Below, one piece after another: positions 5,899 through 57,711 of a DNA stretch of 64,000 nucleotides; the first letter of the stretch is position 1, and every line of letters begins with the position of its first letter. This stretch comes from Patescibacteria group bacterium (lineage in GTDB: Bacteria > Patescibacteriota > Patescibacteriia > UBA2591 > UBA4787), in assembly GCA_028715115.1 (NCBI GenBank), contig JAQUSN010000001.1:67314-131313 (forward strand). Reading direction: 5' to 3'. A program made the position numbers and the translations under genes. A model generated the notes under the pieces. The model saw nothing but the letters and a program-made list of their open reading frames with translations, did not search any database and had not been told where the DNA came from.

Positions 5899-6258
5899 AT
5901 GGCGCGAAAAGCAACACCAACAAAACGAGTCCCGCCAATGGCCGGCTGCCAGAAGGTCAGCTTCGTCAGCAGCAGCGGTACCAACTGGGAAGACCTGTTC
6001 AAAGAAGGAGGGATGATCTTGTCCCTTCATCGCCCAGGAAGACGTGCCTCGGCCGCCCTTCGCCTGGTAAGCGTCCTCGACATCCCTCGCACTCAAGCGC
6101 CGATTATCGTAGTCCTGAGACCGGCGAACGAAACCGAGGACACGCTTATTCCCGGCTTTGTCTGGCCGGCATTTCCTTCGCAAGGATCAGACGGACCCAT
6201 CCGCATCAAGGGGTGCCTGCTCGTCCCAGACAACTACACAGACAAACTCAACCTCTAG
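5899..6258 (+). CDS. Hypothetical protein encoded in GC-rich island 1
   Basis: 119 aa ORF; AAGGAG RBS 5 nt before the ATG; TTGACA-type -35 upstream; followed by a strong intrinsic terminator. Coding GC about 57% by eye versus about 35% in the flanks. The minus-strand ORF 5869-6183 overlaps it and was judged spurious. Confidence 0.4.
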   Translation: MARKATPTKRVPPMAGCQKVSFVSSSGTNWEDLFKEGGMILSLHRPGRRASAALRLVSVLDIPRTQAPIIVVLRPANETEDTLIPGFVWPAFPSQGSDGPIRIKGCLLVPDNYTDKLNL

Positions 6259-6307
6259 GCGTACACCGATCAGACAAGGAGGACCAGTCCAGCGTGTATC
6301 CATTCTA

Positions 6308-6344
6308 GCCCGCCGCAGCTTATCTGCGGCGGGCCTTATTATTT
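6308..6344 (+). terminator. Intrinsic terminator (GCCCGCCGCAG-CTTAT-CTGCGGCGGGC + T-run)
   Basis: Perfect 11 bp GC stem, 5 nt loop, then CTTATTATTT. Confidence 0.65.
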
Positions 6345-6359
6345 AAAAAAATATCAATC

Positions 6360-6388
6360 TTGACAAATCACTAAAATTTTGCTACAAT
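6360..6388 (+). promoter_or_regulatory. Consensus sigma70-type promoter TTGACA-N17-TACAAT
   Basis: TTGACA at 6360-6365, 17 nt spacer, TACAAT at 6383-6388; AAAGGAGG RBS at 6411-6418 then GTG start at 6424. Confidence 0.65.
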
Positions 6389-6423
6389 TACAATATAAGC
6401 ACACAAACCAAAGGAGGAATGCC

Positions 6424-6888
6424 GTGAGAAAAACGCTTGTGGCCGTAAGCCTCGTCTGCCTTCTGACCGTCCCGACCTTCGGGTTCGACGTGGTCAAATT
6501 GACCATGTGCAGCGGTCAACCGGCCAACTTCAAGGCTGCCACTACCCTGTTCGGACCGCTGATGGCCAGGATCGGCATCCCGATCCCAGCCAAGCCTATG
6601 TCCATCAACTTGGGTCTTGGAGCCATGTTCCGGATCCAAATGAACCAGAACAGCGTCTTGAGTCTCAATCCGCTCATCGCTATGACGGTGAGCGATACCT
6701 CGCAGGGCCCAACGCCCTACGTACCGCTCATCTCATCAGACAACGTCTTGAGCCTCTGCCTCGGCAAGACAACCGGGCCAGAGTTCGAAACAAAGTTCGC
6801 GGCCGACTACTGCCTGACCGCAGCGCCGGGCGATCCCAAGATCGTTCCCTCCGGATATCTCTTCGGACTCCAACGACTCAACGGCTGA
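6424..6888 (+). CDS. Secreted hypothetical protein (signal peptide) in GC-rich island 1
   Basis: GTG start 5 nt after AAAGGAGG; N-terminus VRKTLVAVSLVCLLTVPTFG is a signal peptide. The six-frame ORF track opens at an upstream ATG (6379) that lies before the RBS. After the TGA at 6886 the same frame stays open for 61 further codons. Confidence 0.5.
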   Translation: MRKTLVAVSLVCLLTVPTFGFDVVKLTMCSGQPANFKAATTLFGPLMARIGIPIPAKPMSINLGLGAMFRIQMNQNSVLSLNPLIAMTVSDTSQGPTPYVPLISSDNVLSLCLGKTTGPEFETKFAADYCLTAAPGDPKIVPSGYLFGLQRLNG

Positions 6889-7096
6889 GCCGTTGGCGCA
6901 CAAGCCGACGCTAAGTACAAGAAAGGATTGACGTTGTACGCCGGACCGCGAGCCGATCGGATCATCGGCAAGTTCAGGCTCTACTTCGCCTGGGAACGGC
7001 TCATTACCGCGCCCAGCGCGCCCACGCCCCCAAGTCAATGGACATGGAAGGCGGAAGGCAAGTACAGCTTCTGAACTAAGACCTCATCTTCACAGA

Positions 7097-12473: not shown

Positions 12474-12508
12474 AAAAACGCATATTTTCTCGACCGAGAA
12501 AATATGCG
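12474..12508. repeat. 35 bp exact repeat copy 1 (AAAAACGCATATTTTCTCGACCGAGAAAATATGCG), containing a 14 bp perfect hairpin
   Basis: Identical to 13132-13166; the two copies bracket the single gene 12564-13115. Confidence 0.8.
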
Positions 12509-12563: not shown

Positions 12564-13115
12564 ATGAAGTTATCGATAAACGAAAAAATTTTATGGACAA
12601 TTTTTAAATACCTCGAAAAAGCTGATCAAGTCACCTCTTCTAAACAATTTCTAAGCATCGCTCGACCTAAAACTGCTTTTTACAACAAAGGGTATGTCGA
12701 TTACCTATCGATAAAACATCTTACCCAAAAATCTTTACGTAAGAAAAATTTTAGCGCTCTTATCTATCGACTTAAAAGAAGTGGATTTATTAAAACTACT
12801 AAAATAAATAATGCCAAGGCTATTATCCTGACTCCGAAGGCTAAAGATAAAATCCTGCAAATCAATTTAAAACAAACCGACATGCAGTGCCGTAAAGATA
12901 AAAAATGGCAAATGGTTATCTTCGATATCCCCGAAGAATTTAGAAAAAACCGAGATCGTTTCCGATTATCTTTAAAAATAATGAGTTATCAAAAATTACA
13001 GCAAAGTATATGGATTTGTCCCTACGATGTCGCCGAAAAAACCCAACTATCTATTAAATATTTTTCTTTGGAGAATTATGTTAAGTTGCTGTTGGTTGAG
13101 GAAATAAAAATATAA
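12564..13115 (+). CDS. Hypothetical protein, N-terminal winged-helix-like region plus C-terminal Cas2-like/PaaX-C-like ferredoxin-fold segment (weak)
   Basis: 183 aa; the C-terminal KWQMVIFDIPEEFRKNRDRFRLSLKIMSYQKLQQSIWICPYD resembles the VxxYDV...RRK..K.L...G.R.Q.SV core of Cas2/PaaX_C-type domains. No cas genes or CRISPR array are nearby. Confidence 0.35.
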   Translation: MKLSINEKILWTIFKYLEKADQVTSSKQFLSIARPKTAFYNKGYVDYLSIKHLTQKSLRKKNFSALIYRLKRSGFIKTTKINNAKAIILTPKAKDKILQINLKQTDMQCRKDKKWQMVIFDIPEEFRKNRDRFRLSLKIMSYQKLQQSIWICPYDVAEKTQLSIKYFSLENYVKLLLVEEIKI

Positions 13116-13131
13116 AAATCAGTAAATATAG

Positions 13132-13171
13132 AAAAACGCATATTTTCTCGACCGAGAAAATATGCGTTTTT
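13132..13171. terminator. 35 bp repeat copy 2 plus T-run: hairpin terminator
   Basis: CGCATATTTTCTCG/CGAGAAAATATGCG stem followed by TTTTTATTATT. Confidence 0.65.
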
Positions 13172-17160: not shown

Positions 17161-17549
17161 AAGTAAAAACTCTTTTGAGTACAAATCATTTATTTTGAAT
17201 AGAACAGATAATAACCAATTAAATTATTAGATGTCCTGTCAAATTAACAATCTGCACTATTTAATTAAGTTAGTCCTATCTTAATGGTTTAAACCTTCAA
17301 GGGTTAACCCGATTTGAAAGTTTAACTCGTTTTTAAGACTCGACCTTTAATAGTCCGTCCTAATTCGCTCCGTCATCCGTCATCCGTCAATTGACGGAGA
17401 CGGAGATGGGTGGCGAACGGATTAGGGCTTAACCTTAACCCAATTCAGGTAATTAAAGGAGAAATGGATTAAGATCAGAGGACTTATAATTGGTAGATTA
17501 TAAAAAATAATATATAAACCAATTGTAATCCTTAAATATTAAAATTAAA

Positions 17550-25067: not shown

Positions 25068-26562
25068 CTAGCGAATAAGGACGAGCCTGACTGGCGGCGA
25101 ACCATCCGAGGTTCTTGCTTCGTAAACGCCATTCGGCGCCGCGAAACCGCCATCGTCTCTTCCATCCCAGAGACGCCCTGATTCTCGTCCAGCAACATGC
25201 CTGACGCACCGGCCGGTAGAGTTATAGATTTTAACCGAGTTGACGCTGGTTAAAAACCTAAACTCCCTGCCAATCGTCGGCTTAACGACCAGCGGCTTTC
25301 CGGCATGGATTAAGGTCGAGCTTTCTTCGATGCCCATGGCTGGCACAACCAGACGAACGCCATAGCCAAGGTGATGAGCCACTTTGTGGCGCCGACCCAC
25401 GGCTATAATCGTATCTCCCCTGGCTATCCAGTCGCGAAGACAGAAACTCGGTAGGAAACTGTCTGATCCATGGAATGTCCAGAGGGTATCTTGATTCGCA
25501 TAGTCGAATGCCACAACCAGGCCGTGGCCAAAGGCGCCGCCACCCTGACCGACTGCTATTACTACGTGCCCGCTGGCCCATTTCTTCAGCCTATACAAAA
25601 CCGAAGGGTTGCCGTATGAGAAGTAGGATTTGGTCCAAAGCGTATCGCCATTTCTTAGGTCAACAGCCATAAACCAGAATCTTCCTTCATCGTAACGCGA
25701 AGTCTTTGCTACCACTAGGGCGATAGTATCATCCAGTTGCTCGACGTCGGCGGCGTCATCGGCCGAATCGGGATTGCCGTAAGTGCGACTCCATAACAGC
25801 TCCCCCGCCGTATCCAAGCGGGTAACAGATATGTCCCAAGCATGCATTTCGTTGGTGTCGGCGACAGTGCCAACAACAATAAAATCGCCATTGGTAAGAC
25901 GCCGCATGCTTCTAACGCTGTCCTTTCTGGCAAGACTATAGGTCCGACGCCAAATCGGAACAGCGTGACAGTTGATCTTCATCAACAGCAGATTGGACAT
26001 GCCGAGTTCTTTGCGGGTAACCGAATCAACCGGACGGTTCTCTCCAGCCACCATGATGTTACTATCGTTGGGCAACATGACTGCGGCTCGGACGTAGTCA
26101 TCGCTCGGGAGTACGGGTAGATGGTAGAAGAAGTTGATGCTGTCGAATCGCTCGTTAACAGCTGCCTGAACCGCGAAAAAGCCGCAGAAAGGATGGTCCC
26201 CCGAGAGGTTCACGCCAACCGCATAGAAAGTATCCCTGTGACTAAATAGCTCACAGGGATCTTCGTGGGTGTAGACGTAGGGGGGCGGAACATTATAGGC
26301 ACGCCGTCCCAATACCTCCCCCTGTGTATTCATCCGGAACAGAGCAACTGGTAGCGTCGCGGCTCCTGGCGGAGTCGGCTCCCAATCAAAAGTACCCAAC
26401 ACTATGAGCTCATTGCCCCAGGGAGCTTCATAGATCCGATAGTACAACGACCCAAGAATGCATGTATCCCGAAACTCCCCCCAGGTTGATAGGCGCTACA
26501 GCCGACGCAGTCGTGGCCAGAAAGACCACGACCAGACAGACGACCATTATCAGGTGTTTCAT
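25068..26562 (-). pseudogene. Frameshifted gene for a secreted beta-propeller-like protein with T9SS-type C-terminal sorting-domain-like tail (GC-rich island 2)
   Basis: The ATG at 26562 with an AAGGAGG RBS gives signal peptide MKHLIMVVCLVVVFLATTASAVA, and that frame stops after 44 codons. The 459-codon body is in the +1 frame with no start of its own (the track uses an internal TTG). Deleting one G from the G6 run (C6 on the plus strand, 26477-26482) fuses the two. The C-terminus VKIYNSTGRCVRHV...LWDGRDDGG...GVYEARTSDG...RLVLIR matches the Por/T9SS CTD or FlgD-Ig-like pattern. Coding GC is about 58% by eye. Confidence 0.55.
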
Positions 26563-27142
26563 TTTCTGCCTCCTTAGCAGAGTTTGTTAAAGATCTCCTC
26601 CTGATTGAGCCATAATAGGCCCATGATTCGGTTTTATCGCGTTTTAAAATAATGTCAAGCCCATTTAGAACAACTTTACCCCGTTAATCAGGAAGCTGTC
26701 ATTAAAACTAGGCATAAATTAATTTTAATATTCGAGTAGAATATTCCTTTTTAAAAAATAGGGATTAACGGGGATTACTAACTGCCTTTGTTTTGACTTT
26801 AATATATTACTTTAATGCATTAATGTTAACATTTTGACTCATATTTCTACGGCCGTTAAAATGTGAGTCAAAAAACAATTTATGCCATTTATTTACATAT
26901 ATATAAATAAGGGCCATGTTTACGACGTTATAAAAGAGAAATATAAAATTTTCTAACTGGGTAAAGGTACAATTTTCTGCTATAATAAATAGTATCAAAC
27001 GTACAATTTATAGTATATAACCTATAATATTTAATAAATATGCGTATTGGCATAGACGCTCGCCCCCGGTCACAAGCAGGGCATGTGAGGGGACGTCGCT
27101 CGTTTAAACCAATTACGTTATCATGATTAAATAATTAATAAT

Positions 27143-27682
27143 TTGGCTTTGTTTATGAAGATAGGAATAGACGCTCGCTTCTTTGGCCCACAGGGCAAAG
27201 GAATCGGCAGATACACAGAGAAGTTGATTGAATCTTTGGAAAAGCTCGATCAAAACAACGAGTATTTTATCTTTTTAACTAAAGAGGGGTTTGATTTGTA
27301 TGAACCTAAAAACAAGAACTTCCATAAAGTTTTAGCTAATTATCCTTGGTATTCTTTTAAGGAACAATTGCTTTTGCCAAGACTACTAAACCAATATCAT
27401 TTGGATTTGATGCATTTCTTACATTTTAATAAACCACTACTCTACAAAGGAAAGTATGTGGTGACTATACATGATTTGACCTTGTTGGATTTCTCGACAA
27501 AAAAAAACACCCAGGGAAAATCCTGGTGGTGGTTTAAAAATATTATTTTTAAAATCGTCATCAGTCAGTCAATAAAAAGCTCGGAAAGAATTATCGCTGA
27601 CTCGCAATTTATAAAAAACGATCTATTGAAAAGGTTTAAAATACCAGAAGATAAAATTAAGGTTATAGAGTTGGCAGTGTAA
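27143..27682 (+). pseudogene. Glycosyltransferase family 4, N-terminal fragment only (truncated)
   Basis: 179 aa; MKIGIDARFFGPQGKGIGRYT is the canonical GT4 N-terminus, but the ORF ends after the first Rossmann half. The 5' end of the gene is partially duplicated at 27041. Confidence 0.55.
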
Positions 27683-28639: not shown

Positions 28640-30157
28640 TTAACGAACGACGATAACCTTGTGAGTCTTTTCCAGGTCAGTATCAAACAGGAAGAACACT
28701 CCCTGCTCGATCGGGTCCTGAATTCGCCGTCCATTGACGTCGAAGATGACGAACTTGTGTTGAGCGAAGACGCGCTTGAAAGACGCGAACGGGATGACGG
28801 TAGGAAGGGGCGCCTCGTGATTAAGCACATTTGCCTGCTCTTCAAGTATACTGGTTGGTAGTATGTAGATGCTGTCGACAAGGGTGTCGTTGTGTGGCGA
28901 CTGGTCGCCCGAGAGCTGAGTGACACAGCGAACGCGCACCCATCCAGTAGTGCTATCGCTACGGGACGAAAAGCTGATGAGAGCTTCGTGGTTGGGAAGT
29001 ACTTGCGAACTGGTGTCTAGATAGCGGTTGGAATCGACGTAGAGTTCAGCTGGAATGACAGTGGGGTAAATGCCGTGATTTTTGACGTTGATGTTAATGC
29101 CAAACGAGACGTTGAGATTCACAGTGTCTGGAACGACCAGCTCCAGCGGCTGAGCATCGATTGAGTCGATGATAGCTGGCCGAGGCCACAAGACAAAGAT
29201 GTCTTTAAGGTGGCCCGGATCGACAATCTGGTAATCCTCGTATCCTGGCCTGGTGTTTCGAGCTCGAATCCAGGTAGAACACTTGGCTACAGAAAGTCGG
29301 CTGTCGTTAAAGCCAGGTAGATCGCGGCCATTAACCGTATCAATCGCAGTCAACCAATAGCCGGGCGGAGTGCCGTTCGTGCTGCGATACCAGCTCGGTT
29401 CAATCCCACCGCACAGCACTGTTCCCAGATGAGTCCAAAACTCAAGCTGGTAGTTGACGTCATTCTCGCATCCTGGCGTATATGGTGCGCCGGGATACTC
29501 GTAGTCATCAGCCCAGCCTGGAGACCAGGCTGGCTGGGGTCCGGCCGCGCTTACGACTACAGTCTTATAACGGATGGCTTCCGGCGCTTTACAGCCAAAC
29601 CAGGTAGCAATGCCCTGGTGCAAACTGTCTACACCAGTACCAAAGGCGAAACAAGACCAAACGGCAACGAACTTGTAGCCAGGCACTGCACAGCACCAAG
29701 CAGCTAACATACTGTCGGTCAGGACTTCGTTGTTCCACAGAACCGTCTGCCAGAGATGCTCTGGTGGAGGGCAACCATGGCCGATAACCTGAACAACCAG
29801 GATGTCGTTGGAGTCCATCTGACTACCATAGCTGCTAAGGTGGCGCTGAATGCTTGCGAGCGTAGTCGAATCATCAATCGGCGATCGCCGATATTTCACA
29901 CTAACGCCCGAAAGGGGATTTCCCCGCTGTGGCCAAGCATTGCCCATCAGATTGACGTTAGTATCGACCTGAAACCGGCCGTCCTGGCAAGCCGAGTCAT
30001 ATCCTTTCACCTGATACCACATGCAAATGTCGTCACTCATGTTCTGAGCATTGGACGTGCAAATGGTCAGACTGAAAACCTTCTGGGAGTCCGGCGTCTG
30101 GGCAAAACCCAAGCCGAACAGCACCAGAACGAACAGAGCGGGAAAGAGCTGTTTCAT
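28640..30157 (-). CDS. Secreted protein with T9SS-type C-terminal sorting-domain-like tail (GC-rich island 3)
   Basis: 505 aa; signal peptide MKQLFPALFVLVLFGLGFAQ; Cys-rich body; C-terminus KFVIFDVNGRRIQDPIEQGVFFLFDTDLEKTHKVIVVR resembles a T9SS CTD. AAGGAG RBS 7 nt before the ATG. Coding GC about 55% by eye. Confidence 0.6.
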   Translation of the reverse strand: MKQLFPALFVLVLFGLGFAQTPDSQKVFSLTICTSNAQNMSDDICMWYQVKGYDSACQDGRFQVDTNVNLMGNAWPQRGNPLSGVSVKYRRSPIDDSTTLASIQRHLSSYGSQMDSNDILVVQVIGHGCPPPEHLWQTVLWNNEVLTDSMLAAWCCAVPGYKFVAVWSCFAFGTGVDSLHQGIATWFGCKAPEAIRYKTVVVSAAGPQPAWSPGWADDYEYPGAPYTPGCENDVNYQLEFWTHLGTVLCGGIEPSWYRSTNGTPPGYWLTAIDTVNGRDLPGFNDSRLSVAKCSTWIRARNTRPGYEDYQIVDPGHLKDIFVLWPRPAIIDSIDAQPLELVVPDTVNLNVSFGININVKNHGIYPTVIPAELYVDSNRYLDTSSQVLPNHEALISFSSRSDSTTGWVRVRCVTQLSGDQSPHNDTLVDSIYILPTSILEEQANVLNHEAPLPTVIPFASFKRVFAQHKFVIFDVNGRRIQDPIEQGVFFLFDTDLEKTHKVIVVR

Positions 30158-30226
30158 TGGATTTCTCCTTATTTCTTGGGTTTTTCTGTTTCTTTGCTTG
30201 CTCTGACACTTGTCAAAGAGCTATTT

Positions 30227-30258
30227 ATTATAATACACCAAAAATTGACAAAAGTCAA
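30227..30258 (-). promoter_or_regulatory. Promoter TTGACT-N17-TATTAT(AAT) for the island 3 gene, overlapped by TTGAC-N4-GTCAA palindromes
   Basis: Minus strand reads TTGACTTTTGTCAA-tttttggtg-TATTATAAT...TTGACAAGTGTCA...AAGGAG...ATG. Confidence 0.55.
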
Positions 30259-30455
30259 CCCGTAAAGCTAACTTTTGCACTATGAGGTTTTCTCGCTACA
30301 TTTGGTCTAATATTTATATTTTTAGTAATTTTCATTAACTATGACGCCACGGGTCACGGCCCGTAAAGCTAACTTTTGCACCGCGGATTTTTTTGATTAA
30401 TTAGCTTACTTTTAGTCCAGAATCTAACGCAACACTCTTGACGCCACGGGTCACG
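30258..30455. repeat. Interleaved direct repeats: A = (A/G)CCCGTAAAGCTAACTTTTGCAC x2 (30258-30280, 30359-30381); B = TGACGCCACGGGTCACG x2 (30342-30358, 30439-30455)
   Basis: Exact 22/23 bp and 17 bp copies spaced about 100 bp apart, in the order A-[B A]-B, upstream of the island 3 promoter; a degenerate third A-like copy lies at 30511-30530. Confidence 0.75.
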
Positions 30456-30699
30456 AGTCCTTTAAAAATTATATACTTCTCTAATTTTAACGGGTAAATG
30501 ATAAAAATTGGCCGCAAAAAGCTAATTTTGATATTAAAACAATGGTAATTAAAGAAAAATTAATAATTATTTACTATTTAAAGAAAATAAATAACTCGCC
30601 TTTTGTTGACGAGTTATTTATTATAATTATTTTATATTCCGTGTTCTACGTTCTATTTTACCTGCCGGCAGGCAAGTAAATTCTAGATCCTATTCCTGA

Positions 30700-51499: not shown

Positions 51500-52057
51500 A
51501 TGTTCGCTATTATTGGTTTAGGCAATCCCGGAAAAAAATACGCCGACACGCGCCATAACGCGGGCTGGCAAATTTTAGATTCGCTGTCTGGCAAATTAAA
51601 ATGGTCAAGCAGCAAACATTCTCCTATAAGCTATTGCTGGAAAGACATTAATGGGCAATCAATTGAACTAGTTAAACCGACTACTTTCATGAATAAATCC
51701 GGCCTAGCCATCGGTCATCTTGTTAAAAAACACCAGCTTAAGCCCCAAGATCTTATTGTCGTTCATGATGACAAAGACTTGCCCTTGGGAAAATTAAGAA
51801 TTCAAATTAATCATGGAGCCGCCGGCCACAACGGCGTTAAATCTATCATCGAACATCTGAAATCAACCAACTTTATCCGTGTTCGCATCGGTATTCAGTC
51901 GGACGAAACAGAAAACACGCCGGCAGAAAAATTAGTATTACAAAAATTCTCAAAAAAAGAAAAATTGATTTTAAAAAAAGTGATTAACCAGGCCAACGAA
52001 GCGATAAAAATGATTATTGAAAAAGGATTAAATAAGGCCATGAGCAAGTTTAATTAA
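51500..52057 (+). CDS. pth: Peptidyl-tRNA hydrolase
   Basis: 185 aa; MFAIIGLGNPGKKYADTRHNAGW motif, VVHDD. Confidence 0.9.
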   Translation: MFAIIGLGNPGKKYADTRHNAGWQILDSLSGKLKWSSSKHSPISYCWKDINGQSIELVKPTTFMNKSGLAIGHLVKKHQLKPQDLIVVHDDKDLPLGKLRIQINHGAAGHNGVKSIIEHLKSTNFIRVRIGIQSDETENTPAEKLVLQKFSKKEKLILKKVINQANEAIKMIIEKGLNKAMSKFN

Positions 52058-52158: not shown

Positions 52159-52536
52159 CTATCGAACAATCTGGTAGTACGTGGTTAGCGTATCGCCCAG
52201 ACCCTTGCGCCAGAACATTATCATTACTTCGTCTCCATATTCCACGAAACAGTCGCGGCGCGCTTCTCCATAGCAGCTGAGATAGACCCAGAACTTACTG
52301 CTGTAGGTGCCGTCGTTCTCGCGGACCGAAACCTCCAACCACATGGGCTGTTGGCCCTCATTGTACACTTCGGCGCTCTGGTTGGGAACGTGCAAGTACA
52401 AATACACATCCCCAGAAAAGACCAAACCCTGCTGGTCGACGTTCCACGTTTCTACGGGGAAAAACGACTGACAGGCTGGGCCACCAAAGAGAACCAGGGC
52501 CGAAAAGAACAAGAACAGCCTCCCGGCTGTTTTCAT
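52159..52536 (-). CDS. Small secreted protein (GC-rich island 4)
   Basis: 125 aa; signal peptide MKTAGRLFLFFSALVLFGGPAC; AAAGGAG RBS 8 nt before the ATG; coding GC about 55% by eye. Confidence 0.5.
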   Translation of the reverse strand: MKTAGRLFLFFSALVLFGGPACQSFFPVETWNVDQQGLVFSGDVYLYLHVPNQSAEVYNEGQQPMWLEVSVRENDGTYSSKFWVYLSCYGEARRDCFVEYGDEVMIMFWRKGLGDTLTTYYQIVR

Positions 52537-53042
52537 GATACTCTCCTTTCGTGAAGGCTTGTTTGTCCCTCACTCTTATGCCCCTCAGCCTATGACCTAC
52601 GCTAGATAAACTAGATCAATCATAAATTGTGGCTACTTCCTGACTAGGAGGGATTGTCAGTTTCACCGCTGAGGAGCAGAAGAGTAAAGAACAATTCATT
52701 CATTCATATTAATATCATAACAGATTTTTTGACTTTTGTCAACCCCCCACCCTAAACTTTTTGGCGGGGTTAAGCCCGCACTTGAAATTTATAGGTAAGA
52801 GATCAAGAGGAAGGTGTTGCCTATAATAATTTTTTTTAATATAATAAAGGTAGTCCCTCCTCGCCCAGCTAGCTGATTCGAGGTGCTCCCGCCAGCCGTC
52901 GCCTGCCAGATGTTATAGTAAATAAAATTTAGATACGCCCTGCTAATAATAAACATTGAAAACACTTTGACTTATGGTAGGCAGGCCAAAATTCTAAGAA
53001 AAATTTTACAAATTGTGTGCTTAATTTTCTAATAATCTTAGT

Positions 53043-54731
53043 ATGAAAAAGCTTCTGCCTTACATTATAATTTTCCTGCTAGTTTTAGGATTTTTCACCT
53101 TTTTGCAGTCCGCACCGCGACTAGGCGACGGTGATTCTTTTTATCACGCCAAAATTACCGAATTAATGATTCAGGGTCGTGCACCGGTTAAAATTTTTCC
53201 TTGGCTGCCTTACACAATTTTAAACAACTTCTATTACGACCATCATTTTTTGTTTCATATCTATCTTGTTCCTTTTCTTCTACTGATTGGCCAACCGTTG
53301 GTAGCTATTAAGGTCGGGACGATAATTTTGGGCGCACTTTTTGTCACCGTGCTCTATTGGTTTTTACGCCGCTATCAAATTAAATACGCACTGCTTTATC
53401 TTATTCCAGCCATCACTTCATATGTGCTAATCGTCAGATTAAATTTAGATAAAGCACCTGGCGCTTCGCTAATTTTCTTCTTGCTGGGCATTTATTTCAT
53501 TTTACAAAGAAAAAAAATTGCCCTAGCAATTTTGTCTTTTTTGTATGTTTGGCTTTATGACGCCTGGCCGATTATTTTAATCACCACCCTGGCTTATTGC
53601 TTGGCTGTCGCCATTAAATCCGTTATCGATGATTGGCCCGCCTTAAGCAAAACTTTGGATAAAAAACTACTAAAGCAGGTTTTATTCTTTATTAAAAAAA
53701 CCTTTGTTGGTTTTTTCAGTAAATCAAATCTAGCTCTCTTGGGGTCGTGCCTGATTGGCTTGATAGCCGGTATTGTTATCAATCCATACTTCCCTAATGA
53801 TTTAAAGTTTTTCTGGGTTCATATCGTCAAAATCGGCATTTTCACACCAGGCTTAAAATACGGAGTTGGCGCTGAATGGTATCCTTACGACACCATTGCT
53901 CTGGTAAAAGAAAATATTTTAATCATGGCTCTTTGGCTATTTACAGTAGCTTGGTTCTTGGTTAGTTTTAAAAAACCAAGTAAAACCTTTCCTGAGGTAG
54001 AACCGCTTTTACCTCAACTCGGGCAAAGCAAAGAATCACTGTTTCTTGTTATTCTAAATACCTTTTTCTTTTTATACACGCTTAAGGCCAGGCGCATAGC
54101 TGAATATTTTATTCCGCTCACGGCCATCACCGCGGCTTTTGTTTTAAATAAAGCCATAAAAAATATTAACTTTAAAGAATTTTGGCAAGAAATAAAAAAC
54201 GTATTCCTTAAGCCACGATTCATTTTAATAAGCATGCTCATCGCCCTGTTGATTGTAGTCTCGCTGGGCGCCCTAATCGGATCAATCATAAAAATTCAGC
54301 AAAATACTTTTAATTATTTCCGTCAAACCGCGCCAGCTTTTGACAGATTCTCCGGCGTCACTAACTTTATGAAAAACAACACGCCGGCCCGTTCGATCGT
54401 TTTCCATAATTCCTGGGCTTCATTTCCTGAATTCTTCTATCACGACGATAATAATTATTATATCACCGGCCTCGACTCAACGTTCTTCTATGACCCTAAT
54501 CCTAGATTATATAATCTTTGGAAAGATATTACTCAGGCAAAAATTTCAAACAACTTAGCCGCAGAAATAAAAAATAACTTTAAAGCCGATTATGTTTTGG
54601 TCCAAAAAGAAGATGCTTTGTATAGAAATAACGAAACTCAAAATCTCATAAATATCATAAACGCCGATTCTCATTTTCAAAAATTATACGAAGATAAAGA
54701 AGCTATTTTTTATCAAATTAGCGGGATATGA
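53043..54731 (+). CDS. Polytopic membrane protein, GT-C-type (ArnT/PMT-like) glycosyltransferase candidate
   Basis: 562 aa; 11 or more TM helices; first extracytoplasmic loop carries GDGDSFYH, where GT-C enzymes have an acidic loop motif. Confidence 0.4.
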   Translation: MKKLLPYIIIFLLVLGFFTFLQSAPRLGDGDSFYHAKITELMIQGRAPVKIFPWLPYTILNNFYYDHHFLFHIYLVPFLLLIGQPLVAIKVGTIILGALFVTVLYWFLRRYQIKYALLYLIPAITSYVLIVRLNLDKAPGASLIFFLLGIYFILQRKKIALAILSFLYVWLYDAWPIILITTLAYCLAVAIKSVIDDWPALSKTLDKKLLKQVLFFIKKTFVGFFSKSNLALLGSCLIGLIAGIVINPYFPNDLKFFWVHIVKIGIFTPGLKYGVGAEWYPYDTIALVKENILIMALWLFTVAWFLVSFKKPSKTFPEVEPLLPQLGQSKESLFLVILNTFFFLYTLKARRIAEYFIPLTAITAAFVLNKAIKNINFKEFWQEIKNVFLKPRFILISMLIALLIVVSLGALIGSIIKIQQNTFNYFRQTAPAFDRFSGVTNFMKNNTPARSIVFHNSWASFPEFFYHDDNNYYITGLDSTFFYDPNPRLYNLWKDITQAKISNNLAAEIKNNFKADYVLVQKEDALYRNNETQNLINIINADSHFQKLYEDKEAIFYQISGI

Positions 54732-56805: not shown

Positions 56806-56834
56806 TTGACAAAAAGACAAAAATATGATAGAAT
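56806..56834 (+). promoter_or_regulatory. Consensus promoter TTGACA-N17-TAGAAT for the island 5 lipoprotein gene
   Basis: TTGACA at 56806-56811, TAGAAT at 56829-56834; directly preceded by the 18 bp repeat TAAAATTTTCTAACTGGG. Confidence 0.6.
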
Positions 56835-56903: not shown

Positions 56904-57711
56904 GTGAAGTTCGTTACCACCCTACTGATCGCCATAATGGCGGTCATGTTCGTCGGCTGCGCCACCACCGGCATTACGCCGAATCCCACCGCCGGCTTCA
57001 GGTTTGAGTCGCAGGTAGTCGGTGACCCCCGAGACCGGCCTGCAGACACCAATCGCCAGCGCCGAAGTCTCTATCTCCGGCGCCAACATCCAAGACAGAG
57101 CCCTGCGGGATACGATCATAAAGAACGTCAAGGGCAAATTCGACGAGTTGGTTGACCAATGCCTTCAGTTCAACAACCTCGTCCTAACCAAGGCTGTTCT
57201 GGATATAAAAAAGCGGGATGCCGAAGACTCTATCTTAAGAGCGCAGGGCGTGATCAAGGCCAAGGTGGGCATCATCAACGGCTCTAACCAAGAGCTGTAT
57301 GTGGTGGTCCCATCTCAAGACCGAGGCGTTCGAGTCTGTCCAATACAGACTGCCAAGGTTAACAAGGTGAATGGCAACATTCTCTACCTGACACCAAATT
57401 CCAAAGTACCCCTCGTTGTTCAGAGCAAAGTCAACGGGCGCTGGAGCAAAACGTACACCACTGTCATCGACGTTCCCTACGCAGCTCCAGAAGACCGCAA
57501 GCCCTATCGTGACCTAAACAACGAAGGCTACGACCTCATCTACATCATCAACCTCGACGAGATGAAGCCCGCTTCAACCTCAATCGGAGCTGGCGCAACC
57601 GGAAGTATTGGTGGGGTAGAAAATACCCGTTGCTGCCACAACGACCCAGCCTACTGGCGAACAGCCGGATTCAATGTATATGGGTCCGGACCCGGCGATC
57701 GATTGCGGTAG
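56904..57711 (+). pseudogene. Frameshifted lipoprotein gene (GC-rich island 5)
   Basis: GTG at 56904 after AAGGAGG gives VKFVTTLLIAIMAVMFVGC (lipoprotein signal with lipobox Cys), but that frame becomes Arg-rich nonsense and stops at 57155. The 229-codon protein-like body (57022-57711) is in the +1 frame. Deleting one C from the C5 run at 57026-57030 fuses them (...ESQVVGDPETGLQTPIASAEV...). Confidence 0.55.

Follow-up and report, generated by a model that had tools for sequence, protein, structure and literature searches.

The promoter of island 3, one of six compact units (islands) in the 64-kb stretch of Patescibacteria DNA analysed here (the window), carries an inverted repeat, TTGAC-N4-GTCAA, over its -35 box and a second, similar one just past the predicted start site, and the first recurs at the promoter of island 4. 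The underlying TGAC-N4-GTCA pattern is real and not due to chance; it is local to these two promoters, and no signal of a window-wide regulon was observed. The dyad is tentatively taken for an operator of a dimeric repressor, of the 5-4-5 type known from FNR and HcpR.

The window comes from a MAG labelled "Patescibacteria group bacterium", in which the island 3 gene PHV78_00490 lies on a 479-kb contig, and identical DNA is also present in Logan assemblies of SRR22315506-09 and in two NCBI assemblies, GCA_028713815.1 and GCA_028686935.1. The genome has a G+C content of about 38%. Each island is composed of a near-consensus promoter, a 5' UTR, a strong Shine-Dalgarno sequence, a G+C-rich ORF and a G+C-rich terminator-like hairpin; the 3'-end hairpins, checked for four islands, were recognized by eye in islands 1a, 1b and 5 and called by a scan in island 4. 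The GC3 of the island ORFs (0.58-0.75) is above the range of native genes (0.29-0.41), and the coding parts are therefore compositionally foreign. A signal-peptide-like N-terminus is present in five of the six island ORFs, the exception being island 1a. Coordinates are collected in Table 1.

Table 1. Positions of the island ORFs, promoter elements and repeats in the window.
Feature	Position	Strand	Details
Six island ORFs	5899-7075, 25068-26562, 28640-30157, 52159-52536, 56904-57711		
Dyad 1, TTGAC-TTTT-GTCAA (gene strand)	30245-30258		left half is the -35 hexamer TTGACT (30258-30253); centre ~-28.5
-10 region, perfect 10-bp palindrome TATTATAATA	30226-30235		gene-strand -10 TATTAT (30235-30230), 17 nt from the -35
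Dyad 2, TGACA-AG-TGTCA (TGAC-N4-GTCA)	30204-30215		centre ~+13.5; 42 bp from dyad 1
5'-UTR stem-loop GCUCUUUGAC-AAGU-GUCAGAG..AGC	30196-30221	-	10 pairs; holds dyad 2
Mirror-image promoter-like site, CTGACA-N17-TATTAT	30203-30231	+	10/12
Upstream module, 22-mer GTGCAAAAGTTAGCTTTACGGG twice	30259-30381	-	copies at 30381-30360 and 30280-30259, 101 nt apart
Island 3 gene PHV78_00490	28640-30157	-	505 aa; signal peptide; GC 0.53; GC3 0.60
Island 4 dyad, TTGAC-AAAA-GTCAA (gene strand)	52729-52742		-35 TTGACA (52742-52737); extended -10 TGnTATGAT (52722-52714)
Island 4 gene PHV78_00590	52159-52536	-	125 aa; secreted; GC3 0.69
Island 5 promoter, TTGACA-N17-TAGAAT	56806-56834	+	homologous to that of island 4; GACAAAAA twice in place of the dyad
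Inverted repeat TTTTGACTCA-N21-TGAGTCAAAA	26834-26871	+	10-bp arms; left arm is a -35

Promoters and dyads of islands 3, 4 and 5

The minus strand of island 3 from 30258 to 30204 had been described as TTGACTTTTGTCAA-N9-TATTATAAT-N9-TTTGACAAGTGTCA, and this reading was confirmed, the full gene-strand sequence being TTGACTTTTGTCAA / TTTTTGGTG / TATTATAAT / AAATAGCTC / TTTGACAAGTGTCA. This segment forms the core of a strong promoter of the sigma-70 type, TTGACT-17-TATTAT, which agrees with the consensus (TTGACA and TATAAT, 16-18 bp apart) at 10 of 12 positions. Its -10 is symmetric, with elements on both strands: the palindrome is accompanied by -35-like hexamers at 17 bp on either strand, and the 56-nt promoter segment is self-complementary in three blocks that cover 34 of its 56 positions. 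Dyad 2 shares 9 of 10 half-site bases with the TTGAC-N4-GTCAA type (30203-30216). As RNA, dyad 1 forms a small hairpin (-6.6 kcal/mol, z -2.5), and the 5'-UTR stem-loop with dyad 2 reaches -13.1 kcal/mol (z -3.4), a stability equalled by none of 200 shuffled sequences. In the upstream module, the first 22-mer copy is followed by CCGTGACCCGTGGCGTCA. The Shine-Dalgarno sequence of the island 3 gene is AAGGAG (30170-30165), and the C-terminus of its product resembles, by eye, a sorting tail and the tail of the island 2 protein, with no Pfam hit.

The 14-mer of dyad 1 had been said to occur again at 52729-52742. This recurrence is exact, but it holds only for the plus strand, and the island 4 gene is on the minus strand; in gene orientation the island 4 dyad reads TTGACAAAAGTCAA, in which the half-sites are unchanged and the A/T spacer is inverted. 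Exact 5-4-5 dyads of the form TTGAY-N4-RTCAA are present at both positions. The island 4 promoter, TTGACA-17-TATGAT with TG, agrees with the sigma-70-type consensus at 11 of 12 positions. A homologue search with the island 4 protein returned none.

Two further sites named in the preliminary description fared less well. The sequence TTGACAAAAAGACAA at the island 5 promoter (56806-56820) was read correctly, but with N5 and GACAA it is not the same dyad; Tandem Repeats Finder reports it as GACAAAAA in two copies, and a search of this promoter for a hairpin found none. The inverted repeat assigned to 26833-26877 does exist, but it lies at 26834-26871, and the arms quoted for it are 18 nt apart, not 20. 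Its left arm serves as the -35 of TTGACT-N17-TAAAAT, the only plus-strand promoter candidate for the glycosyltransferase gene at 27143.

Rarity of the dyad and the promoter family of the lineage

TGAC-N4-GTCA occurs four times in the window, against an expectation of 0.18, and none of 100 shuffles reaches four; three of the four matches fall in the promoters of islands 3 and 4. With up to two mismatches, the 14-mer is found six times (1.03 expected). When TTGAC-Nk-GTCAA was counted with at most one mismatch, k = 4 gave 10 sites, as compared with 1-6 sites at every other k from 0 to 15. The seven k = 4 sites outside the two promoters are all intra-ORF, six of them in native genes and one (25240) in the island 2 ORF. 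A window-wide regulon was rejected, the intragenic one-mismatch sites that were read (17154 and 38052) looking like ordinary coding sequence. Among the six island promoters, those of islands 3 and 4 have the dyad, those of islands 1a, 1b and 2 lack it, and that of island 5 has the direct repeat. The exact dyad was found once in 945 kb of unrelated viral DNA and was absent from 47 kb of related Patescibacteria loci and from the 13 kb flanking the window. Two wider scans stayed at chance level: the 17-mer AAAGTTAGCTTTACGGG had 17 matches, in unrelated taxa, in a genome contig collection that does not contain the source genome, and GCTTTACGGG(N)TTGAC had 107 matches in viral contigs, two with a properly spaced -10 and neither of these related.

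The setting of island 3 is conserved among relatives. The adjoining LamG gene has orthologues at 44-48% identity, and in each of the six relatives inspected LamG is followed by a homologue of the island 3 protein (in L022 at 34% identity, E 6e-52; the others share the signal peptide and the C-terminal tail), thus island 3 occupies a conserved slot. A 39% homologue of the protein was also found in a contig with 60% G+C. The promoters of islands 3, 4 and 5 and of the L022 orthologue can be aligned along an A/T tract (CAAAAGTT-like), a G-run and TTGAC; an extended TG precedes the -10 in islands 4 and 5 and in L022, and island 3 is without it. All six promoters of the family hold CAA at about +12 to +16 from the start of TTGAC.

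A metagenome scan with GGTTGAC-W4-GTCAA-N9-TATNAT returned 109 loci. One of these, L063, comes from the same sample as the relative L025 and reads AGCTTTACGGGGTTGACAAAAGTCAATAAAAATATTATAAT before an L,D-transpeptidase gene. L063 also has GCTTTACGGG, which abuts the -35 of island 3 and is absent from the scan pattern. Furthermore, island 3 (window 30259-30458) and L063 (2913-3030), which belong to two distant genomes, have in common a 28-nt element, AGCTTTACGGGCC.GTG.CCCGTGGCGTC. In both loci its distance to the GCTTTACGGG copy next to the promoter is exactly 101 nt, the element being upstream, and the sequence between is unalignable. RNA folds of this element are not significant, and Rfam gives no hit for it. 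The NUDIX promoter of L022 starts with GCTTTACGGGCTTGAC. The elements common to island 3, L063 and L022 indicate that the promoter module is the lineage's own, with foreign ORFs placed behind it; the promoters are native to this Patescibacteria lineage and were not carried in with the foreign genes.

The dyad itself is less constant than the module. It is found at two promoters in 77 kb, is present in L063, and is nearly matched by the same-slot promoter of L250 (9 of 10 half-site bases, same spacing); the same-slot promoters of L022, L024, L025 and L249 are without it. Overall, in four of the six same-slot promoters of relatives the dyad is missing or the inverted repeats have another geometry. 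L250 has AACCCTTGA-N6-TCAAGGGTT over the -35, a 9-bp stem of -14.2 kcal/mol (z -4.6); L251 has CCTTGA-N5-TCAGGG there, a 6-bp stem that precedes T8 and TATAAT; and in L249 the repeat is 16 bp long and its loop measures 17 nt.

Several other candidates were rejected. An alternative long hairpin at island 3, GCAAAAGT...ACTTTTGT, has no conserved counterpart in L063. Two TGAC-N7-GTCA repeats (30342-30356, 30439-30453) were dismissed as further sites of the same motif because L063 does not retain the TGAC/GTCA ends and keeps ACGGG...CCCGTGGCGTC. Recognition by an ECF sigma factor was discarded because the -10 boxes are TATAAT-like, mostly with extended TG. At gathering thresholds Rfam detected only a tRNA, and permissive scans of both upstream regions gave noise.

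Readings of the dyad

Four readings of the dyad were compared, which are not mutually exclusive. The operator reading ranks highest, as a tentative possibility to which the other three are serious competitors; RNA hairpins and a relic of repeats share the next rank, each of them doubtful; and mirror-image promoters are ranked last, as distinctly unlikely.

Under the operator reading, a dimeric helix-turn-helix protein would sit on the dyad, whose left half coincides with the -35 box, and would thereby block RNA polymerase, and the same dyad would expose the island 4 promoter to the same control. At island 3, the second core at +13.5, 42 bp or four helical turns downstream, would lie on the same face of the helix and may permit cooperative binding, and the bases of dyad 2 also form the predicted 5' stem-loop of the mRNA. 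As judged from the sequence, such binding, repression and co-regulation of islands 3 and 4 are plausible. Five sites fit TTGAC-N4-GTCAA with at most one mismatch, namely the -35 and +13 sites of island 3, island 4, L063 and L250, and this consensus agrees with published HcpR and Anr boxes. Spacer and flank are flipped between island 3 (TTTT, TTTTT) and island 4 or L063 (AAAA, AAAAA) and the half-sites stay fixed, as expected of a dyad read by a protein. The exact dyad of L063 precedes a different gene. In L055, an unrelated contig with a Penicillinase_R (BlaI/CopY, PF03965) repressor gene, the dyad stands upstream of that gene at the -35 and again right past the -10, and L124 contains the exact dyad twice, at -35 and +1.

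Several findings weigh against the operator. The island 5 promoter, homologous to that of island 4, has lost the dyad and retained the direct repeat. The repeats of L249, L250 and L251 vary in arm and loop length, which suggests structure and not a fixed protein site, and dyad 2 extends to a 10-bp stem, beyond the need of a 14-bp operator. A second dyad was found near 2 of 68 independent metagenome promoters, therefore the two-site layout is not general. The preliminary description had proposed that one TGAC/GTCA regulator controls several cassettes. The dyad shared by islands 3 and 4 speaks for this proposal as regards these two, and beyond them it is not supported: only two of the six islands have the dyad and the spacings at island 5 and at 26834-26871 differ; one dimeric regulator could not read the N4, N5 and 21-nt-gap sites alike. 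A fitting regulator gene was also sought, and none of CRP/FNR, BlaI or other type was found in about 77 kb (the scanned window ORFs plus the Pfam tables of the flanking 13 kb), where the only regulators found are an ECF sigma factor and two genes that resemble CsoR and PaaX. As for PF03965, a tblastn query with the L055 repressor gave no match in the window, and Pfam scans were likewise negative.

The variable geometry of the repeats could be explained by dyads acting as RNA hairpins, such that the -35 hairpin and its T-run stop or reduce read-through from upstream (a terminator-promoter) and the +13 stem-loop stabilises the mRNA. We regard this reading as doubtful. In its favor, the +13 stem is long and stable, and unrelated 5' hairpins occur at the matching position in islands 1a, 2 and 5. 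The -35 stem of island 3 reaches eight pairs through G-U pairing, on the sense strand only, and is followed by T5, which a scan calls a terminator-like site; L250 and L251 keep -35 hairpins that differ in sequence and geometry. Among 76 distinct metagenome promoters with the dyad, the palindrome is at least one pair longer in 29 and at least two pairs longer in 19, far above chance, and the extension tends to GGGTTGAC-N4-GTCAACCC; TTTTG-TATAAT usually comes next, which gives the outline of a terminator merged with a promoter. The terminator-like call at island 3 depends on a long stem, mostly of A-U and G-U pairs, and island 4 has no T-run. The hairpins of island 4 and L063 are weak (5-6 pairs, -5.0 and -5.5 kcal/mol) and run into A-runs, so termination is impossible there; LamG has its own terminator (30622-30586); and a hairpin free in sequence gives no reason for TGAC/GTCA to appear again in the +13 stem. 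An operator inside a 5' stem-loop could combine the two readings.

The flip of the spacer, which fits a protein-read dyad, would also be accounted for if the dyad had no function of its own and were a by-product of the promoter family, made of the -35 TTGAC and one or two A-tract heptamers (NNCAAAA / TTTTGNN), with an accidental GAC/GTC palindrome and with islands 3, 4 and L063 alike by descent. In this case the swap of TTTT and AAAA would correspond to two array orientations. The same-slot promoter of L024 and L025 is situated at the end of TTTTGAC/TTTTGAT/TTTTGCC arrays, which flank a 23S_rRNA_IVP gene in inverted orientation, and where a -35 lies within TTTTGNC arrays, two adjoining units yield GAC-TTTT-GTC automatically. 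L024 reads TTGACTTTTGATTTTTGCC and island 3 reads TTGACTTTTGTCAATTTTTGG; island 4 can be written as GACAAAA+GTCAAAA and island 5 as GACAAAAA twice; and the conserved CAA of the six family promoters likewise speaks for such a relic. We nevertheless consider this origin rather improbable, to the same degree as the hairpins. The +13 dyad has no A-tract and is left unexplained, as is the exact N9/N9 mirror spacing around the -10; the window has no long array of this heptamer, and a pair of units does not suffice as proof of periodicity.

The last reading takes the TTGAC/GTCAA pairs as -35 boxes on both strands of pseudo-symmetric, bidirectional or overlapping divergent promoters. Island 3, with its 10-bp palindromic -10, reads TTGACT-N17-TATTAT on the gene strand and CTGACA-N17-TATTAT on the opposite strand, and the predicted start sites, about 15 bp apart, are inside the 7-25 bp range of bidirectional promoters (PMC10268837). 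For island 4 the intergenic region is divergent and reads TTGACT-N18-TAAACT on the plus strand, the TTGAC...GTCAA repeats at 26834-26871 and at L022 16266 are also in divergent intergenic regions, and the 16-bp repeat of L249 forms two back-to-back promoters. This reading covers only the outer half-sites of island 3, however, and leaves the inner ones aside. No plus-strand promoter is needed upstream of island 3 or L063, because the neighbouring genes point the same way, and the gene at 53043 has a better plus-strand promoter at 52817. Mirror-image promoters are an unlikely account of the dyad.

Known systems and further features of the window

FNR-type activating sites centre at -41.5, and the island 3 dyad is instead at -28.5. 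In layout, the island dyad is identical to the 5-4-5 boxes of FNR (TTGAT-N4-ATCAA), HcpR and Anr, and its half-sites are those of HcpR (consensus wyTTGACnnnnGTCAArw; PMC1274295) and Anr. The Anr box at katAp2 (TTGac-N4-gtCAA) overlaps the -35 and is centred at -29 (PMC4974557), much as dyad 1 at island 3. Unlike in these systems, no CRP/FNR gene was found in the 77 kb examined, and the dyad targets foreign secreted proteins and not redox or nitrogen-oxide genes. A second likeness is to the two-dyad operators of BlaI/MecI/CopY, since two dyads bracket the core promoter at island 3 as well. The inner core of the +13 site, ACA-NN-TGT, matches the cop-box core. In contrast to those operators, the window is without PF03965, the downstream genes are not the repressor's own operon, and just one ACA/TGT half is present in the -35 dyads.

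5'-terminal stem-loops stabilise mRNA, and combined terminator-promoter sites exist. Island 3 resembles such systems in the stable hairpin within the first ~30 nt of its predicted transcript and in the hairpin and T-run over the -35 and spacer, but the -35 hairpins of the window are weak (5-8 pairs, at most two of them G-C) and island 4 lacks the T-run. With pseudo-symmetric bidirectional promoters, island 3 shares the near-perfect -10 symmetry and, on either strand, a -35-like hexamer at 17 bp. For these promoters (Warman et al. 2021, as described in PMC10268837 and PMC12825309), start sites are usually 18 bp apart, as opposed to about 15 bp predicted for island 3, where furthermore no gene lies on the reverse side and the inner half-sites are unaccounted for. 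On the whole, the architecture is conventional for bacteria and is ordinary regulatory architecture.

Patescibacteria have few regulators and are not culturable alone, and to our knowledge next to nothing is known of how transcription is controlled in this group (the candidate phyla radiation). Should the dyad prove to be an operator, a small regulon of surface or secreted proteins gained by horizontal transfer would be marked by it, and the regulator could be fished out with a concrete DNA probe. If it is a hairpin or a repeat relic, the foreign genes are still shown to stand behind a native, conserved promoter family. One may speculate further on a portable expression module of the lineage (A/T tract, GCTTTACGGG or G-run, TTGAC-N4-GTCAA, usually an extended -10) that carries newly acquired foreign genes for secreted proteins, such a set being switched by one dyad-reading regulator and possibly by phase switches in homopolymers located just behind the signal peptides; we rate this picture as very improbable.

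A textbook operator was observed elsewhere in the same genome. A CsoR-type box, ACCCACCCCCAGGGGGT, directly follows TATATAAT at ~1735-1760 on the minus strand, upstream of the CsoR-like gene (1413-1691), a 200-aa ORF and a copper ATPase. Given this box, placed after a -10, the genome does use classical operators. The gene for the PaaX-like regulator (Cas2-like domain; 12564-13115) is flanked by identical 35-nt hairpins, AAAAACGCATATTTTCTCGACCGAGAAAATATGCG, at 12474-12508 and 13132-13166, and L063 likewise encodes a PaaX-like protein.

Composite hairpins and promoters of the form aaaaaaGGGGTTGAC-N4-GTCAACCC-TTTTG-TATAAT are shared by low-G+C metagenome contigs (L034, L038, L044, L046, L049, L056 and others; L052, L064, L084, L098, L123), and in several contigs with the aaaaaaGGGGTTGAC composite very G+C-rich, structured-looking sequence follows immediately. 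Arrays of NNCAAAA or the inverse TTTTGNN were located in L024 (3180-3390 and 3930-4000) and L025 (8260-8440 and 9150-9200), where they flank the 23S_rRNA_IVP gene (four-helix-bundle, Avd-like) inserted between LamG and the island 3 homologue, and the downstream -35 is in the array. In the window, an inverted heptamer array, CTCCGTCTCCGTCAATTGACGGATGACGGATGACGGAG, occupies 17369-17420 in the 365-nt gap upstream of a 1257-aa gene, and its centre is the perfect palindrome CCGTCAATTGACGG.

Some island ORFs show irregular reading frames. In islands 2 and 5 the frame of the signal peptide differs from that of the main ORF, and loss of one base (G6 to G5, C5 to C4) from a homopolymer (G6 at ~26480 in island 2, C5 at ~57026 in island 5) would fuse the two frames. 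These may be phase-variable switches or early pseudogenes; for island 5, comparison with a second assembly (L242) found the sequence unchanged. The island 2 protein has a weak FlgD_ig-like tail at its C-terminus. Island 1b contains an in-frame TGA at 6886-6888, after which the frame stays open and G+C-rich for 62 further codons to 7075, and this codon could represent a nonsense mutation or read-through. A poly-A run at 51532-51538, in the 5' part of the gene for peptidyl-tRNA hydrolase, at its very end, differs by one A between assemblies (A7 vs A6), and the called length of the protein varies with it (185 vs 157 aa).
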